Made by a program: the position numbers and the translations under genes. A DNA stretch of 64,000 nucleotides from the NCBI RefSeq assembly GCF_013315695.1, contig NZ_CP054353.1; one strand, given 5' to 3'. The notes under the pieces are model-generated. The model ran no database searches. It saw only the letters and a program-made list of their open reading frames with translations, and was not told the DNA's origin. Source of the stretch: Escherichia coli. Its GTDB lineage: Bacteria; Pseudomonadota; Gammaproteobacteria; Enterobacterales; Enterobacteriaceae. Position 1 is the first letter of the stretch. Every line of letters begins with the position of its first letter. Shown here piece by piece: positions 34,630-56,950 of this stretch.

Positions 34630-34921
34630 ATGAATCGTATTGAACATTATCATGACTGGTTACGTGACGCCCACGCAATGGAAAAGCAAGCCGAATCTAT
34701 GCTTTAATCCATGGCCAGCCGTATAGATAATTATCCTGAACTACGCGCTCGTATTGAACAACATCTTAGTGAAACCAAAAACCGATTGTTCAACTGGAAA
34801 CTATTCTTGATCGTAATGACATTTCACGTTCAGTCATTAAAGATTCCATGAGTAAAATGGCTGCGCTTGGGCAGTCAATCGGTGGTATATTTCCTTCTGA
34901 TGAAATAGTCAAAGGCTCTAT
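34630..34921 (+). pseudogene. yciE: yciE pseudogene: in-frame TAA at codon 26, 1-bp deletion frameshift, 3' end removed by IS1
   Basis: MNRIEHYHDWLRDAHAMEKQAESML* then YciE-like sequence continues in the same frame (SMASRIDNYPELRARIEQHLSETKN), then shifts frame (…SVIKDSMSKMAALGQSIGGIFPSDEIVKGS) until the IS1 end. Confidence 0.8.
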
Positions 34922-34976
34922 GGTGATGCTGCCAACTTACTGATTTAGTGTATGATGGTGTTTTTGAGGTGCTCCA

Positions 34977-35252
34977 GTGGCTTCTGTTTCTATCAGCTGT
35001 CCCTCCTGTTCAGCTACTGACGGGGTGGTGCGTAACGGCAAAAGCACCGCCGGACATCAGCGCTATCTCTGCTCTCACTGCCGTAAAACATGGCAACTGC
35101 AGTTCACTTACACCGCTTCTCAACCCGGTACGCACCAGAAAATCATTGATATGGCCATGAATGGCGTTGGATGCCGGGCAACAGCCCGCATTATGGGCGT
35201 TGGCCTCAACACGATTTTACGTCACTTAAAAAACTCAGGCCGCAGTCGGTAA
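34977..35252 (+). CDS. insA: IS1 InsA
   Basis: Identical translation to copy 1. Confidence 0.95.
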
Positions 35253-35674
35253 CCTCGCGCATACAGCCGGGCAGTGACGTCATCGTCTGCGCGGAAATGG
35301 ACGAACAGTGGGGCTATGTCGGGGCTAAATCGCGCCAGCGCTGGCTGTTTTACGCGTATGACAGGCTCCGGAAGACGGTTGTTGCGCACGTATTCGGTGA
35401 ACGCACTATGGCGACGCTGGGGCGTCTTATGAGCCTGCTGTCACCCTTTGACGTGGTGATATGGATGACGGATGGCTGGCCGCTGTATGAATCCCGCCTG
35501 AAGGGAAAGCTGCACGTAATCAGCAAGCGATATACGCAGCGAATTGAGCGGCATAACCTGAATCTGAGGCAGCACCTGGCACGGCTGGGACGGAAGTCGC
35601 TGTCGTTCTCAAAATCGGTGGAGCTGCATGACAAAGTCATCGGGCATTATCTGAACATAAAACACTATCAATAA
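35171..35674 (+). CDS. insB: IS1 InsB
   Basis: Identical translation to copy 1. Confidence 0.9.
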
Positions 35675-35888: not shown

Positions 35889-36356
35889 TTATTTCAGGCA
35901 CTGAGTACGGATATATTCCTGCGCCCCTTCCAGTTGCTTCTGCATCGTCATCAGCCGCTCTCTGAGGGTGAAATAATCCCGTGTAACGGTGTCTGCCAGT
36001 TGGGGGCCGGTTGCATTATCCACGCGGGCGGTGCCGGTGGCTTCACGCACGGGACCTGGACAGGTGGCGTTGATACGCAGGCGCTTACGACCAGCGGCAA
36101 CGTCAGCGCGAAGAGTTTCATTTTCAGCTTTCGCATCAGCTAACTCCTTCGTGTATTTTGCATCGAGCGCAGCAACATCACGCTGACGCATCTGCATGTC
36201 AGTAATTGCCGCGTTCGCCAGCTTCAGTTCTCTGACATTTTTGTCGCGCTGGGCTTTGTAGGTAATGGCGTTATCACGGTAATGATTCAGCCCCAGACTA
36301 AGCGCACCACAGGCCACCAGCAGGGCAATGATGACCACGCACAGTACGCGGTTCAT
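35889..36356 (-). CDS. i-spanin Rz
   Basis: 155-aa ORF …[70 protein letters not shown]… closely resembles lambda Rz. Confidence 0.9.
35951..36136 (-). CDS. o-spanin Rz1 lipoprotein (embedded in Rz, +1 frame)
   Basis: 61-aa [25 protein letters not shown]…[32 protein letters not shown]; lipobox and Pro-rich, lambda Rz1-like. Confidence 0.85.
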
Positions 36357-36654: not shown

Positions 36655-37188
36655 TTATCTGTCGATTCCCCAGCACGCCAGCGCGCTCTCCTGGTCACGA
36701 CGGGATACCTGACCATAACAGTTGTTTGAGCGGATACGGCAGTCTCTGCCACCGTCCTTAATCCACCAGCGAATCGCCTCACACGCTCCCCTGCGATCAC
36801 CTGCATTAATTCGTTTATAAAACGTCGACGGGAAACACTTACCGGGACCAATGTTGTACGGACAGAATGACGCGATCCCCGCTTTCTGGGGTTCACTCAA
36901 TGGCACTCTGATGTTTTTCTCCACCCATGCCAGCGCCTCATCACGCTCAATGGCGTTAACCCGGTCGCATTTTTCCTTCGACAACTTCATGCCCGGAACG
37001 ACAGGTTTGCCATCCACCAGGATGGCACCGCGGCAGATGGTCCAGATACCCGCACCATCACGGTATGCCGTGGTGTGGTTACCTTCCTTTTCATCCAGAA
37101 ACTGGTCGAGAATGTCAGGCGCAGGCGCACCAGCGGCAATCAGCGCCAGAACGGCAGCCGACAGGCCGTATCTGATTTTTGCGTTCAT
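36655..37188 (-). CDS. phage endolysin (GH24 lysozyme with N-terminal signal-anchor-release-like segment), RrrD-like
   Basis: 177-aa ORF MNAKIRYGLSAAVLALIAAGAPAPDILDQFLDEKEGNHTTAYRDGAGIWTICRG… closely resembles cryptic-prophage lysozyme RrrD. Confidence 0.9.
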   Translation of the reverse strand: MNAKIRYGLSAAVLALIAAGAPAPDILDQFLDEKEGNHTTAYRDGAGIWTICRGAILVDGKPVVPGMKLSKEKCDRVNAIERDEALAWVEKNIRVPLSEPQKAGIASFCPYNIGPGKCFPSTFYKRINAGDRRGACEAIRWWIKDGGRDCRIRSNNCYGQVSRRDQESALACWGIDR

Positions 37189-37293
37189 GGATATTTATCA
37201 GGATTTATCGGTTTCTGAGCCCTGGATATGTTTATCAGTTCCAGCCTGTTGCCTCAGGCTGCTAACAGGTCAATACAATCATGAGGATTATTT

Positions 37294-37566
37294 ATGGACA
37301 ATAACACCATTTCTCTACAGGAGTTGCTCGACAGCATTTCCAGGCTTCGGGAAGACGTGAATACCCTTACCGTCGCCTTCTCATATCTGGCATTCTCAAT
37401 TCCAAGGGAACAGATGCAATCAACGCTGGCATCAATCCAGTTTGAATCATGCAATCCCAAATGGTCTCAGGAACAACAAGACTCTTTCAGGCGGCTTGCT
37501 GTATTACTGGATGAAAAATATGCTGGTAAAATTACCATTTCGGCGGACTCTTCAGAGAACCCGTAA
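37294..37566 (+). CDS. hypothetical 90-aa protein, antisense-oriented inside lysis cassette
   Basis: ORF with strong SD (gaggatt, 6 nt before ATG); convergent with orf114, overlapping it by 35 nt. Confidence 0.45.
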   Translation: MDNNTISLQELLDSISRLREDVNTLTVAFSYLAFSIPREQMQSTLASIQFESCNPKWSQEQQDSFRRLAVLLDEKYAGKITISADSSENP

Positions 37567-37876
37567 TTATTCCCGGTAGTTTTCCTCTGTAGGTTATCAA
37601 CACATCCTGCGCCTCTAAAATTACGGGGCGCTTTTCCGGCGACTGCTCATCCCCTTCACATAACCCGGCAGCAACATCCAGGAAGACCTGTCTGATGCTC
37701 CTTCTGGCTGCTGCCTCATAAAACTCCAGCGCGGCACCTTCAACACGGTCCAGCGAGATGTCCAGGTCAAAAATTTCACCGTCAAAGCGTTTTTTGTCCC
37801 GTAACGCTAAAGTTACCGTAACTTTATTCTCAAAATTGCGGATCCCTTTCACAATCAGTTCATAGTTTTGAGTCAT
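37532..37876 (-). CDS. hypothetical 114-aa phage protein between holin and endolysin (position of ydfR-type genes)
   Basis: ORF immediately downstream of holin stop, co-directional with lysis genes. Confidence 0.55.
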   Translation of the reverse strand: MTQNYELIVKGIRNFENKVTVTLALRDKKRFDGEIFDLDISLDRVEGAALEFYEAAARRSIRQVFLDVAAGLCEGDEQSPEKRPVILEAQDVLITYRGKLPGIITGSLKSPPKW

Positions 37877-37880
37877 TGAA

Positions 37881-38096
37881 TTACTCTCCCCGTGCAGCCT
37901 TACGACGGTCCTCTCTGATTTTGAAATACAGGTTAGTCAGATATGTCAGCAGCCCAAACAGCAGACTCCCCAGCACGCCTATTGCCGCCCACTGAGACGG
38001 GGAAACCCTGTCCAGCAACTGCAGGAACCAGTAGCCCGTTCCCACCGCTGACGTGGTGTATGACACACCTGTTGTGATTTTTTCCATCTGGTACAT
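37881..38096 (-). CDS. phage 21-type pinholin S with dual-start motif
   Basis: [71 protein letters not shown] resembles S21 (MKSMDKISTG…); start set at dual-start Met within ORF 37881..38174. Confidence 0.85.
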
Positions 38097-38246
38097 ACCC
38101 CGTCTCCCGTTATCCGGAAGCTGACAACAATAAAAAAAGCCACCAGTTAAGTACTGATGGCTCTGATAACTCATGCAGGCATCTCAGACGACCCACTGAC
38201 ACTACCGGTGAGTTTAACGATACCTTCCATTTGGCTGGCTCACTTT

Positions 38247-40100
38247 TTATGATGATGCCGGTGCATTTATCTCCAGCACCAGACTTTCTATCTCAACGCC
38301 ATACGCTGCATTTTTGGTAATATCCGTCAGCGTCAGCGCATTCAGCCCCAGTGTCAGACTGTCTTTTATGACCTGGAATGCCGGGCCAGCCACTCCATTC
38401 AGTTTCGGAGTAACCGTGGCACTGCCGGCGGTGAACACCAGCTCCAGCGTCTGCCAGTCGTTACTGTAATTCCCGAACTCGCCCAACTTTGTGTTTCCTG
38501 CTTTCTTGTGATGCATCAGATTCAGTTTGCCGTCTGTGGTCTGGGTGAAGAACGACATCAGGAACGGGTTACCAGTCCCGGTCATCGCCACGACGTCAGG
38601 TAACGCTACATCGGTATACAGATAAATTCCCAGACCGAACTGGTTGTTGGTCAGTGCGCCTGACAGTCGAAACTTACAGCTCAGTCTGCCACCCCGTGTC
38701 AGCAGGGAGACTGCGTCATCCACCGGGCGCGTCAGGGACCAGGCTTTATTGCTCTGCTTGGTGATCTTAAATACACCATCTGACAACTGAATTCCGCCAT
38801 TCTTAATGCTCCAGCCCTGCGCAGCAGCGTCTCCGGCTGTCGGCAACAGGGAGATTGTGCGTATGGATGCATCTTCAGACGGCCCCGATGGCGTGTCGCC
38901 GCCGGGCGAGGGTTTGATTTCCGGTGCCTTACCACTAATGAAGGCTAAGGTGCGACCGGCTACGTTCAGAATAGCAGTTGCCATACGATCGGGAATAATG
39001 CCACGACGCGCCCATGAGCTGAAATGCGTCGGGCGATTTGATGATACCCAGTTTTTGTTCGTTCGGGATGCCGAACCGTAATAACCAGACCCGGCAATAT
39101 CAGGATCTTCTGACGGGTTGTTTGTCGGTGTATTAACTCCGCTACCATCGGTCATAAAGGGAACAAAATAAATCTGCTGGGATTCTTTACCTTTATATGC
39201 ACCATATACCACTTCATATTGCGTACCGTGTTCTTGTTTCCACGCGTATGTCGTGTCGCCACAAATCCAGGGGACTGATGCCGGACTTCCACCGTGACAC
39301 TGCGCCGCCAGCCCGGCAAGGTCAGCACGGAACTGCTGTACCATTGCAAGAAATGCTGCTGGCTGCTGGGCGTAACTGGCATTCGTCATATCGAATTCCC
39401 CCTGCATCCAGCATATCGCCAGCAAAACGTTTTTCGGGTTTTTCTGCAATGCTGCCTTCGTGCGGAAAAGCAGATCCTGATATAACGGCTTACCCACTCC
39501 CCAGCGAGCCGAATCCTGACTGGCTCCCGTGGACTCGCTGAATGTCCCCTCCGTGCCCTGGGTGAATGCCGAACCACCACGACAGCATGGTACCAGCAGG
39601 ATCCCCGCATTATTAGGGATATACGGAAGCAGTTTTTTGGCAATATGTAAGCCCTGTCCGACACAGCCGTACTGCCCTTTGCTCAGGTCAGCCCGGGGAT
39701 GGTTAATCGTACTCATATCCTGAACATCATGCAGACAATGGTCAGCAGGAATGATGTCGTTAAATACGCATACTTCACCACCGGGAGTCACTGTGTTACG
39801 ACGGGCCAGTTGCTTAATGCGCGGATGGGGCGCATCGTATGAATCCGGAAGCGGAAGCCCTTCACCGTAAGCCATGGCATTGGATTGCCCGGCCAGTACG
39901 ATGACGTAGTACCACTCCGGCTCAGTTGCACCACTGACGACCACATCACCTTCTGCTGCAATCGCCTGCATCAGGGTATAAGGGGTTATGGCCACCGGAC
40001 TACCAAACGGCTGCCAGCCCTCCTTCAGTTTTTGTGTCAGTCGTTTCGCAAGGTCTGACGGCGATGCCGCCCTGACCACGTCATAGTGTTTAAATGCCAT
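38247..40100 (-). CDS. prophage sialate O-acetylesterase NanS-p (N-terminal DUF1737-like, SASA/SGNH esterase domain)
   Basis: 617-aa ORF; N-terminus MAFKHYDVVRAASPSDLAKRL…; VIVLAGQSNAMAYGEG esterase motif; located between tRNAs and holin as in Stx-type phages. Confidence 0.8.
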   Translation of the reverse strand: MAFKHYDVVRAASPSDLAKRLTQKLKEGWQPFGSPVAITPYTLMQAIAAEGDVVVSGATEPEWYYVIVLAGQSNAMAYGEGLPLPDSYDAPHPRIKQLARRNTVTPGGEVCVFNDIIPADHCLHDVQDMSTINHPRADLSKGQYGCVGQGLHIAKKLLPYIPNNAGILLVPCCRGGSAFTQGTEGTFSESTGASQDSARWGVGKPLYQDLLFRTKAALQKNPKNVLLAICWMQGEFDMTNASYAQQPAAFLAMVQQFRADLAGLAAQCHGGSPASVPWICGDTTYAWKQEHGTQYEVVYGAYKGKESQQIYFVPFMTDGSGVNTPTNNPSEDPDIAGSGYYGSASRTNKNWVSSNRPTHFSSWARRGIIPDRMATAILNVAGRTLAFISGKAPEIKPSPGGDTPSGPSEDASIRTISLLPTAGDAAAQGWSIKNGGIQLSDGVFKITKQSNKAWSLTRPVDDAVSLLTRGGRLSCKFRLSGALTNNQFGLGIYLYTDVALPDVVAMTGTGNPFLMSFFTQTTDGKLNLMHHKKAGNTKLGEFGNYSNDWQTLELVFTAGSATVTPKLNGVAGPAFQVIKDSLTLGLNALTLTDITKNAAYGVEIESLVLEINAPASS

Positions 40101-40330
40101 GAATCCTCCCGGGCGGGATAATGTTGTGAGTCAGATAAGGAGCAGGCTGAAGTCCGGAAGTTACAGGACAATGGCAGAAGGGAGACTACAGCCCGCAATT
40201 CGAAAAAGACCGCGCAGTTGCGCAGAGTGATTACTATGGGGTATTATTCGCCAGCTGAAATATTACTTCACGTTTTATTGTTTATTCCTTGCCGCCCGCG
40301 TCTCCCAGCGCGGGCTTTTTTTGTCCATAA

Positions 40331-40568
40331 GAAAGCCCCTCCGGAGAGGGGCTAAAGCCGCGTATCTGTATCATCATGCACATGGTGCCGGGTGCCTCCC
40401 GGTGAGTTCAGCCCGGTGCCACTAAACCCGCGTCATTCTCGTTTTGATAATCAGAGATTATACCGTCACCAGTCGCCCCTCCGCTCAGGGGGATTCACCA
40501 TGCGAAATTTTTTTAACAAATGCCCAGTCTGACAGGCAACTGTCAACTTACTGAATTGTGAGCAACAT
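40331..40568. repeat. hairpin-rich noncoding repeat unit, copy A
   Basis: Shares blocks aaagcccctccggagaggggct, catggtgccgggtgcctcccggtga, cccctccgc.cagggggattcaccatgc, ttttaacaaa, ctgaattgtgag with copy B. Confidence 0.7.
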
Positions 40569-40815
40569 AGCATTTAACGGGGAACCTGTTTTCTGCAGTA
40601 AAAAGGCCCACCGGAGCGGATGGGCCTGGAAGGATAGCGGTCATGTGATGCCGGTTTCCCGGTAACTCAGCACCGGTATCTGAGTCAACGTTTTCTCTAC
40701 TGGGTCATTTCCGATACGCCCTGCCTGCTGACAGGCTTTCATCACATCTGAAAATATAGCACCCTGACTGATACTGTAGTACCTAAGGTTCCAGAAACTG
40801 TGATGTATCCGGCAC

Positions 40816-41036
40816 AGAAAAGCCCCTCCGGAGAGGGGCTGGAGAGTGGCGCTATGTGCCATTGCATGGTGCCGGGTGCCTCCCGGTGAATTCAGTACCA
40901 GCACCTGAATCCGCGATTATCCCATATACCTACTCGCTGATTGCCCCTCCGCACAGGGGGATTCACCATGCCAGTTTCTTTTAACAAACTCCCCGCAAAC
41001 CAGACAACAGTCAACCGCCTGAATTGTGAGACATTT
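40816..41036. repeat. hairpin-rich noncoding repeat unit, copy B
   Basis: Degenerate direct repeat of copy A (~485 bp period); a third partial copy of the ccgg-hairpin block lies at ~40690..40740. Confidence 0.7.
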
Positions 41037-41074: not shown

Positions 41075-41151
41075 TGGCGCGTTGTACTGGATTCGAACCA
41101 GTGACCGATTGCTTAGAAGGCAATTGCTCTGTCCGGCTGAGCTAACAACGC
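41075..41151 (-). tRNA. tRNA-Arg (anticodon UCU)
   Basis: Manual fold: acceptor GCGTTGT/ACAACGC, D-arm GCTC..GAGC, anticodon stem ATTGC/GCAAT with loop CTTCTAA, T-arm ACTGG TTCGAAT CCAGT, CCA end. Confidence 0.9.
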
Positions 41152-41164
41152 AGGATACAGATAA

Positions 41165-41241
41165 TGGACCGCCTTCGGGGACCCGAACTCCGCGCAACCA
41201 GCTTCGAAAGCTGGCGCTCTTTCCTGATGAGCTAATGGCGG
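41165..41241 (-). tRNA. tRNA-Arg-like (anticodon UCG), possibly degenerate
   Basis: Perfect anticodon stem CCAGC/GCTGG with loop TTTCGAA, but one mismatch each in acceptor and T stems and T-loop TTCGGGT lacks the conserved A58. Confidence 0.5.
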
Positions 41242-41248
41242 TATGTGA

Positions 41249-41324
41249 TGGTGGCCCTTGCTGGATTTGAACCAGCGACCTGGCGATTATGAGTCGCTCG
41301 CTCTCACCACTGAGCTAAAGGGCC
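41249..41324 (-). tRNA. tRNA-Ile2/Met type (anticodon CAU), ileX/ileZ-like
   Basis: GGCCCTTTAGCTCAGTGGTGAGAGCGAGCGACTCATAATCGCCAGGTCGCTGGTTCAAATCCAGCAAGGGCCACCA; near-identical to remembered E. coli tRNA-Ile2 (k2CAU). Confidence 0.85.
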
Positions 41325-45534: not shown

Positions 45535-45690
45535 TTACTCCTCAGGTTCGTAAGCTGTGAAGACAGCGACCTCCGTCTGGCCGGTTCGGAGTCGTACCTC
45601 GCAGAGGTCTTTCCTCGTTACCAGTGCCGTCACTATGACGGTTAAACAGATGACGATCAGGGCGATTAACATCGCCTTTTGCTGCTTCAT
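45535..45690 (-). CDS. hok: Hok/Gef-family type I toxin (HokD/RelF-like)
   Basis: MKQQKAMLIALIVICLTVIVTALVTRKDLCEVRLRTGQTEVAVFTAYEPEE, essentially the remembered HokD sequence; extended upstream frame (to 45747) corresponds to mok-like leader. Confidence 0.9.
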   Translation of the reverse strand: MKQQKAMLIALIVICLTVIVTALVTRKDLCEVRLRTGQTEVAVFTAYEPEE

Positions 45691-45927
45691 AGCCTGCTTC
45701 CCCTTGCCTTTCGGCACGTAAGAGGCTAACCTACATTTGTGAGACATAGATTGGGCCTCAGATTAATGTTAAGCGTCTTGCAGGACGCGAAATGTTAACT
45801 GGGGCTTTTCTCTATCTGCCTTTCAGTGTTCATGCCTGAGACAGATAGCCTCAAGCACCCGCAGCCATTCTACTTAACTCACGTCACCTCGCCAATATGA
45901 AATCAATCAGAAAGGTGATCCATAAAA

Positions 45928-52056: not shown

Positions 52057-52588
52057 GGGTCAGGTGGAGTGCGTGCGCCGGACACGGGTGAGCATCCGGC
52101 ACTGACAGCTTACTGAAAGGATATGTCCCTGAAAAGTCAGGGCATAACGCGAAAGCGCACGGCGAAATTGGTCTCTCTGTACGGTGTCGTTAAATTTAGT
52201 TCGACCGTGCGCTTCCGGTTGTGGCACTCCGCGAAATGGCGCGGCGGTAAGTATGGCTGGGGTTTCCTCCATTGCTCCAGAAAATGCACCGGGTTGTCAG
52301 GTTGACCATACGCTTAAGTGACAACCCCGCTACAACGCCCTCTGTTATCAATTTTCTGGTGACATTTGGCGGTATCAGTTTTACTCCGTGACTGCTCTGC
52401 CGCCCTTTTTAAAGTGAATTTTGTGATGCGGTGAATGCGGCTATGCGCACGCGGAACAGTTAAAGCAGTAAGGCGGTATTTTACGGGCGTAACGAGCATC
52501 AACTAACCCGGCGTTAATTGTTAACTGGTTAACGTCACCTGGAGGCACCAGGCACTGCATCACAAAATTCATTGTTGAGGACGCGATA

Positions 52589-55593: not shown

Positions 55594-55842
55594 ATGGCAA
55601 GACTTATTCTGCTCACTGAGTGGGCAAAAGAGGAATTCAGTGAACCGGTCCCTACTCCGAGTACGTTAAGTAAATACGCTAAAGCCGGAATGATATTTCC
55701 TCTCCCCAAAAAAGTTGGAAGACGCTGGCGAGTGGATCCGCAAGCTCGCTTTGTCGGAATGGTAAACAAGCCGGAGGTGATCGCCACAGATCACCCTGCT
55801 TTGAAGAGGATACTGGAAGATGGCGCGCCCGCGAAAATATAA
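55594..55842 (+). CDS. xis: excisionase-like protein
   Basis: 82-aa ORF immediately upstream of and overlapping the integrase gene. Confidence 0.6.
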   Translation: MARLILLTEWAKEEFSEPVPTPSTLSKYAKAGMIFPLPKKVGRRWRVDPQARFVGMVNKPEVIATDHPALKRILEDGAPAKI

Positions 55843-56950
55843 AACCGATGTTCCGGGATTATCTCCGTATTTTGACAAAAGAAATAACAAAGTTTACTGG
55901 CGTTACAGGCATCCCATAACAGGCAAAAATCACGGTCTCGGCAGTATTGACCAGAAACTGGCAGAAACTATTGCAGCAGAAGCGAACAGCCGTCTTGCCC
56001 GGCAGCAAATGGAACAAATGCTCAGTCTGCAGGAGAAAATTATTAGTGATACCGGCGGTTCATCAACCGTTACCATTTTTCTGAATAATTACAGAAAAAT
56101 TCAACAGGAAAGATATGAAAACGGCGAGATCAAACTCAACACGCTGAAACAGAAAGCAGCTCCTCTCAGGGTATTTGATGAACGTTTTGGCACCAGACCG
56201 TTAGATGCCATAACCGTAAAAGATGTGGTATCAGTACTGGAAGAGTACAAGGCCAGAGGACATAACAGAATGGGACAAATTTTCAGGAAAGTACTGATCG
56301 ATGTTTTCCGGGAAGCTCAGCAAACGGGCGATGTCCCGCCAGGCTTTAACCCTGCAGAATCGGCAAAAAAACCGCAGGTGCGGATATCAAGACAGCGACT
56401 GACTTTTGATGAGTGGATGATGATTTATAACGCAGCGGAAAAGGATGGTTACTTTTTACAGCGCGGTATGCTGCTGGCACTGATGACAGGCCAGCGCCTT
56501 TCAGATATTTGCAAAATGCAATTTTCGGATATCCGGGATGGTTATCTTCATGTCGAACAGCAAAAAACAGGAACCCGGATTGCCATCCCTCTGGCTCTGC
56601 GTTGCGATAAATTAAATCTCACCCTGGATGATGTGGTGTCATCCTGCCGCGATTGCGTTCTTAGTCCGTGGCTATTGCACCACCATCACGCGAAAGGGAC
56701 AGCTAAGCGCGGCGGGATGGTTAAGCCAGCAACATTAACCGTTGCATTTAAAAAAGCCCGGGATTCTGTGGATTACAACTGGCGTGCTAATGGCACCCCT
56801 CCCTCTTTCCATGAGCAGAGATCTTTATCAGAGCGATTGTTCAGAGAGCAGGGGGTTGATACCAAAATTTTGCTAGGCCATTCGAATCAAAAAATGACCG
56901 ATATTTACAACGACGCACGCGGTAAGGAATGGAAAAAACTGGTCATTTGA
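55820..56950 (+). CDS. int: tyrosine recombinase (lambda-type integrase)
   Basis: 376-aa ORF with catalytic-region motifs (…LMTGQRLSDICKMQFSDI…, …HHHAKGTAKRGG…, …LLGHSNQKMTDIY…); 3' end 35 bp from ompW stop. Confidence 0.85.
   Translation: MARPRKYKTDVPGLSPYFDKRNNKVYWRYRHPITGKNHGLGSIDQKLAETIAAEANSRLARQQMEQMLSLQEKIISDTGGSSTVTIFLNNYRKIQQERYENGEIKLNTLKQKAAPLRVFDERFGTRPLDAITVKDVVSVLEEYKARGHNRMGQIFRKVLIDVFREAQQTGDVPPGFNPAESAKKPQVRISRQRLTFDEWMMIYNAAEKDGYFLQRGMLLALMTGQRLSDICKMQFSDIRDGYLHVEQQKTGTRIAIPLALRCDKLNLTLDDVVSSCRDCVLSPWLLHHHHAKGTAKRGGMVKPATLTVAFKKARDSVDYNWRANGTPPSFHEQRSLSERLFREQGVDTKILLGHSNQKMTDIYNDARGKEWKKLVI

Follow-up and report, generated by a model that had tools for sequence, protein, structure and literature searches.

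In the K-12 prophage DLP12 the holin gene essD directly abuts the lysozyme gene rrrD, in agreement with the statement in a preliminary description of this DNA that in canonical phage-21-type cassettes S is directly followed by R. We analysed a 64,000-nucleotide stretch of Escherichia coli DNA (contig NZ_CP054353.1; the window) in which two further genes were found between S and R, one of them antisense to the late operon. Given that holin and lysozyme abut in DLP12, a cassette with these two genes truly differs from the minimal one. The antisense gene, a 90-codon frame here called orf90, raises the question of whether it is an accessory passenger (a moron) or a regulator of lysis timing, as had been proposed, or a chance open reading frame.

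The lysis cassette and its prophage

Gene positions were read from the open reading frames of the window. The lysis cassette was found on the minus strand in the order S, orf114, R, Rz/Rz1. Holin S (38096..37881, minus strand; 71 aa and 216 nt by PGAP, which names it 'class II holin family protein'; phrog_9876/phrog_20) carries a MYQM dual-start motif with an alternative Met at 38087, while the mechanical ORF extends to 38174. It is a class II holin of the phage-21/pinholin type, and PF04971 was matched on its orthologue in locus L088. Endolysin R, a lysozyme (37188..36655, minus strand; phrog_7), has relatives in the PDB from phage 21 (3HDE/3HDF) and DLP12 (RrrD, 4ZPU) at E ~1e-15, and its N-terminus, judged by inspection only, contains an Ala/Gly-rich, SAR-like hydrophobic stretch. 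The spanin gene Rz (36356..35889, minus strand) and the embedded Rz1 (36136..35951, minus strand) matched phrog_13 and phrog_3198 (Rz/Rz1). With a dual-start class II holin and an R21/RrrD-related lysozyme with a SAR-like N-terminus, the cassette fits, by its predicted features, the phage-21-type pinholin/SAR-endolysin kind.

The prophage occupies ~35.8-56.9 kb of the window, between ompW and yciE and beside the trp operon, with its integrase gene (~55820-56950) adjoining ompW. Directly downstream of Rz we found IS1 (transposase 34977-35674), in the place where relatives such as NCTC9082 have terminase, head and tail genes. The prophage is thus a truncated, defective element, although its lysis cassette is apparently intact. 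A yciE-like pseudogene lies near IS1 (~34630-34922), and the region is 100% identical to strain MSB1_4I. Rfam models detected two STnc100 RNAs (40323-40532 and 40810-41000) and three tRNAs (41078-41324), all downstream of the Q antiterminator region, as well as sok of a hok/sok locus (45685-45860) and DicF (52354-52405); no RNA family was found between 36400 and 38400. The late-region layout is typical of Stx-type lambdoid phages, yet no stx genes are annotated in the window.

Coding signals of the two intervening genes

The first of the two genes, orf114 (37876..37532, minus strand), was confirmed as the 114-aa gene following S. It starts 4 nt past the S stop codon and is co-directional with the lysis genes, so that it is probably co-translated with them. 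PF07041 was matched over residues 1-111 (E 7.9e-43) and phrog_406 with E 4e-68; PGAP annotates the product as 'YdfR family protein'. Its site, on the late strand between a class II holin and a lysozyme, matches the gene order essQ-ydfR-rrrQ of the K-12 prophage Qin. By family match and position, orf114 is an ordinary YdfR/DUF1327 late gene, an outcome that the preliminary description had itself named as one that would count against its proposal.

The window YdfR shares the DUF1327 N-domain with Qin YdfR (68% identity in the alignment) but differs in its last ~35 residues (…ITYRGKLPGIITGSLKSPPKW), which end in SLKSPPKW, the divergence beginning at about residue 75. In Qin, in addition, ydfR is fused stop-to-start with rrrQ, its stop overlapping the rrrQ start, and has no antisense neighbour. 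[quoted passage not shown] Our literature search for DUF1327 gave one incidental mention.

The second gene, orf90, lies on the plus strand (37294..37566) and overlaps orf114 tail-to-tail by 35 nt (37532-37566); it reaches into the 343-nt gap between orf114 and R (37189..37531). These coordinates hold as first described, and the Shine-Dalgarno sequence is GAGGA (37283..37287, plus strand), with a 6-nt spacer to the ATG; it is kept in homologues of the E. coli clade. RefSeq/PGAP annotates the frame as WP_000369850.1, 'hypothetical protein'. Its product matched the profile phrog_2411 over its full length (residues 1-90 of 90, E 1.1e-58), and its UniRef name is Ybl58. A literature search for WP_000369850, WP_000370546, WP_000370415, WP_000976359, ybl58 or phrog_2411 found nothing, and neither transcriptome nor proteome evidence for the gene came up.

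We next asked whether the frame could be a chance antisense opening propagated by annotation pipelines. In favour of this, orf90 is short, matches no known domain, is absent from the literature and lacks a confident promoter, and some copies are damaged. Selection was measured on 19 distinct homologous DNA sequences over codons 1-79, the part outside the ydfR overlap. In the orf90 frame dN/dS was about 0.27 with no in-frame stops, even though the sequences reach down to about 58% identity, and variable columns were distributed 44/29/68 over the three codon positions, an excess at the third. Other reading frames of the same DNA gave dN/dS values of 0.85-1.8 or many stops, and the mirror antisense frame, with a dN/dS of 0.28, contained 15 stops. 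Over the comparisons made, dN/dS was 0.2-0.37; the structure model of the product is confident, with three helices, and homologues are found in other genera at 25-40% identity. The lack of conservation or coding signal that had been named as fatal to the original proposal was thus not what we found, and the selection analysis effectively refutes a spurious origin, to which we attach a next to negligible probability. Judged by its substitution pattern, orf90 is a genuine, selected gene.

Frameshifts or truncations affect some of the Ybl58 copies in databases (P0061, with an internal out-of-frame stretch, and several shorter clusters). Such copies indicate that, although purifying selection prevails overall, the gene is degenerating in a fraction of the population.

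Distribution of orf90 within and beyond the S-R interval

To see how the interval varies, S-R regions of related prophages were compared, as had been suggested at the outset, and three architectures were found. In type A, represented by BP-4795, a 114-aa YdfR separates S from R and no antisense gene is present; K-12 Qin resembles it but for another YdfR tail. Type B, with orf90, is that of the window and of phages Chlobot (PP925838) and vB_EcoS-783R2 (ON470626). In type C, represented by PhiR5_1 and Stx2-converting phage 86 (Stx2-86), YdfR is lengthened by unrelated C-terminal extensions to 211 and 268 aa (minus strand, L003:3409-4044 and L002:3542-4348) and the orf90 site is taken by other antisense ORFs, phrog_2572 and phrog_1853 (plus strand, L003:3201-3461 and L002:3218-3532). 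No mutual homology was detected among the three alternative antisense ORFs (orf90, phrog_1853 and phrog_2572).

The alignment of the three types also delimits the variable segment. On the left, a ~45-bp segment directly 5' of R (37189..37233) is common to types A, B and C. On the right, the boundary falls at ydfR codon ~112, the 'PP', and in type C the YdfR motif 'SLK.PP' directly precedes the breakpoint; orf90 closes with codons (…SSENP/Q*) that are the antisense reading of the conserved ydfR 3' end. With a G+C content of 44% the cargo lies modestly below S, R and Rz (53-55%). By this comparison the S-R interval is a polymorphic cargo hot-spot. The segment 5' of R contains no obvious Shine-Dalgarno sequence for R, despite its conservation across all S-R architectures.

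Orf90 DNA was detected in roughly one in five complete E. coli genomes (1,206/5,426), usually in one copy; they include the BL21/C41(DE3) lineage (locus L101; NZ_CP010585.1, 1403649-1403921), and the lysis cassette that holds orf90 is otherwise a textbook one. At a single site with sharp boundaries, the gene is present in some close relatives and absent or exchanged in others, and its base composition departs modestly from that of the neighbouring phage genes.

Within E. coli, nearly all copies of orf90 lie in the S-R interval, in at least 76 distinct neighbourhoods, which may point to a lysis-linked role. Such a role could take the form of a regulator of lysis timing, in which convergent transcription of orf90, or its protein, damps or delays ydfR, S or R, for example against leaky endolysin in the lysogen. 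The gene occupies the very interval that separates S/ydfR from R, a transcript from it would run antisense to the 3' end of ydfR, and the cassette is of the pinholin/phage-21 lysozyme type. Selection, however, acts on the orf90 protein sequence and not merely on transcription, and many related cassettes work without the gene.

We therefore looked for copies outside lysis cassettes. In loci L089-L091 a 72%-identical orf90 is intact and ydfR is cut to a 3' remnant. Our initial argument that orf90 is independent of ydfR, based on L089 as a locus without ydfR, had to be softened, as L089 retains this remnant and is a deletion derivative. A paralogue adjacent to iha, an adhesin/siderophore receptor gene, lies in an island with IS debris (L100:4001-4273) and was found on at least 1,000 contigs. 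Its flanks are fossils, with the R start codon lost and stops in the ydfR remnant, and the 90-aa ORF is intact. Another paralogue, on a 78-kb plasmid, adjoins an AIDA-like autotransporter gene and its heptosyltransferase gene, again among IS debris (L099:3995-4264), and here homology is limited to the orf90 ORF. Copies outside lysis cassettes gave dN/dS values of 0.19-0.37 against all others.

A profile search returned only 22 clusters among 1.84 billion representatives, and the distant members P0066-P0075 also match phrog_2411. Distant full-length homologues were found in phage tail operons, lying antisense there: in L103/L104 they separate gpM- and gpL-like genes, and in L108 the homologue adjoins a gpI-like gene. 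A chromosomal branch of ~92 aa, vertically inherited, occurs in Serratia, Chania, Gibbsiella, Sodalis and Acerihabitans; in both loci examined (L106:4001-4279 and L107:1463-1741) it sits between dinI and bssS on the same strand. The Serratia-branch genes are annotated only as hypothetical.

Intact, selected copies thus persist next to decayed lysis genes (L100) or with no lysis genes at all (L099), with nothing there to regulate, as well as in tail operons and on Serratia chromosomes, and a tie of orf90 to lysis is not supported by these sequences. This persistence outside lysis cassettes is why we disfavour a lysis-timing regulator, which we regard as quite unlikely. The comparison of loci shows a gene mobile between contexts and, judging from relatives without it, probably dispensable for related lysis cassettes. 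Of the two roles first suggested, the moron is borne out by presence/absence polymorphism, replacement by unrelated antisense genes, lower G+C and stand-alone copies, and the timing regulator is not, in view of the copies in L099, L100, tail operons and Serratia.

With moderate confidence we lean towards orf90 being an autonomous accessory moron in the S-R interval, separately transcribed and acting in trans, next to an unrelated YdfR late gene in the same interval. As a moron it is an uncharacterised one, already annotated as hypothetical in more than 1,000 genomes. A selected, portable accessory gene, rather than lysis machinery or an annotation artefact, would mark the S-R interval as a place for cargo in lambdoid phages.

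The moron reading fits two known arrangements. The bor/borD gene of lambda and DLP12 is likewise a small gene opposite the late operon, in or beside the lysis cassette and dispensable for lysis; in K-12 DLP12, borD is antisense right after rzpD. Bor is an outer-membrane lipoprotein with a known role in serum resistance. Ybl58, by contrast, has no signal peptide or lipobox, is predicted to be soluble and helical, is unrelated in sequence, and lies between S and R rather than after Rz. More generally, a gene that lies antisense to prophage lytic genes and has its own promoter is a typical accessory locus (PMC7067206). STMMW_20121 of the Salmonella prophage ST64B, proposed as an accessory/regulatory locus, was shown by Owen et al. 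(2020, PMC7067206) to be transcribed in lysogeny by a promoter of its own. Expression was demonstrated there, whereas for orf90 it is proposed, and the likeness is one of arrangement.

Transcription signals, product and convergent partner

Promoter prediction upstream of 37294, one of the checks first proposed, gave no convincing sigma-70 site. A scan for consensus promoters upstream of orf90 found none, and the best candidate of a PWM scan, TTGCCT-19 nt-TACAAT (37249..37279, plus strand; -35 at 37249 and -10 at 37274), was at background level (score 10.0, ~90th percentile of background). Its -10 is so near the Shine-Dalgarno sequence that the leader would be ~8 nt long. The -10 is conserved among orf90 copies and reads TATAAT in the iha-adjacent L100. 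A small hairpin, CAGCCTG-N6-CAGGCTG (37243..37262, plus strand; -12.9 kcal/mol, z -1.6), lies upstream of orf90 and is partly conserved. No LexA box was seen by eye upstream of orf90.

Downstream, ~43 nt past the orf90 stop and inside the ydfR coding sequence, we found a candidate terminator, GCGCCUC-N9-GGGGCGC followed by UUUU (37609..37635, plus strand). On the plus strand it folds with -13.8 kcal/mol (z -1.8; 10/200 shuffles as good), against z +0.5 on the minus strand, and it has only four U. In L100, which lacks ydfR, the hairpin is kept and better paired (z -3.3), while a synonymous CGC-to-CGG change disrupts it in BP-4795, a phage of type A (z -0.5). This pattern suggests that the hairpin may terminate the orf90 transcript. 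The putative terminator would cap the antisense overlap at ~100 nt of ydfR, short of S or R, a further point against a transcript that delays lysis. Collision of orf90 transcription with late transcription, as raised in the preliminary description, is possible.

For the accessory moron, these elements suggest the following arrangement. The cassette would be made up of the 90 codons and their ribosome-binding site, probably with a weak promoter and a hairpin terminator of its own, inserted in reverse between the end of ydfR and the conserved leader of R. In this orientation the gene cannot be expressed from the Q-dependent late promoter; its transcription would be independent and would most likely take place in the prophage state. 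The product would act in trans in the cytoplasm, binding a host or phage partner rather than the lysis machinery.

The product of orf90 is small and acidic and was modelled as three helices (residues 8-35, 38-51 and 59-76; AF2 pLDDT 83.6); it is predicted to be soluble. No relatives were found in sequence searches of Pfam, NCBIfam, PADLOC or the PDB, and the structure check returned no fold or family match pointing to a function. Profile and structure searches, suggested earlier for both products, thus placed orf114 as YdfR and gave for orf90 a three-helix model with no functional relative. A single weak Foldseek match of the model was annotated 'Anti-RssB factor' (E = 5). Orf90 resembles IraP (PF10796) in size and helicity only: 86 aa compared with 90 aa, both all-helical and restricted to Enterobacterales. 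We rejected an IraP/anti-RssB identity, as there was no Pfam match and hhalign against PF10796 gave a probability of 1.5% (E 0.034). PADLOC matched no defence or toxin-antitoxin model in orf90, YdfR or the alternative cargo ORFs; a stray match of Cmr5 (E 0.018) to the long YdfR was deemed irrelevant.

We also compared the genes on which Ybl58 members converge. The phage-borne contexts examined include five independent ones, and in every one of them the partner is a late-strand gene ending in a motif like I-x-G-S/D-L-x-x-P-P. The tails read …IITGSLKSPPKW for the window YdfR, …ITGSLRAPIKL in L086, …IIGSLITPPEL in L087, …IFGDLKKPPSY in L103/104 and …EKITGSLFAP… in L108; outside the window the convergent loci are in tail operons and Citrobacter-like contigs (L103:4001-4476, L104:321-796, L108:2929-3361, L086:250-721 and L087:153-576). 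No such partner motif was found in the Serratia locus. As the Ybl58 member and its partner overlap by anything between 7 and 47 nt, the motif is not imposed by antisense coding. When the short partners were aligned with YdfR by hhalign, exactly the 19-residue tail was aligned (E 1.1e-4).

These findings raise the idea of a functional pair made up of orf90 and the C-terminal segment of its convergent late-strand gene; a protein made independently of late transcription might, for instance, bind or neutralise a partner that is expressed late. The lysis cassettes of E. coli would then have this partner segment fused to the YdfR N-domain. In line with this, K-12 YdfR, with no orf90 neighbour, also lacks the motif. 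However, the hhalign probability is just 57%, on a short motif, and the YdfR of BP-4795 carries the motif with orf90 absent. Conversely, orf90 occurs with no intact partner in L089-91, L099, L100, L102 and the Serratia loci. Neither protein matches toxin-antitoxin or defence models, and the co-occurrence could arise simply because the 3' end of the partner is inherited within one recombination unit. Such a pair is, in our estimate, unlikely, though it deserves some weight.

A broader version would make the phage-borne Ybl58 and the 'ITGSL..PP'-tailed genes a portable two-gene cassette hopping between late operons (lysis and tail), with one partner made only in lytic growth and the other independently. 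This would amount to a new phage switch or antidote pair, possibly linked to the reported RNase E and RNA binding of YdfR; we consider it a long shot. The significance of orf90 is modest and would rise if a function were found or the convergent pairing turned out to be real.

Upstream of the cassette, a strong terminator-like hairpin with a T-run was observed on the minus strand (38136-38164), between holin S and a nanS-p-like gene of the SASA-family esterases (38247-40100). Late transcription presumably has to read through this hairpin.
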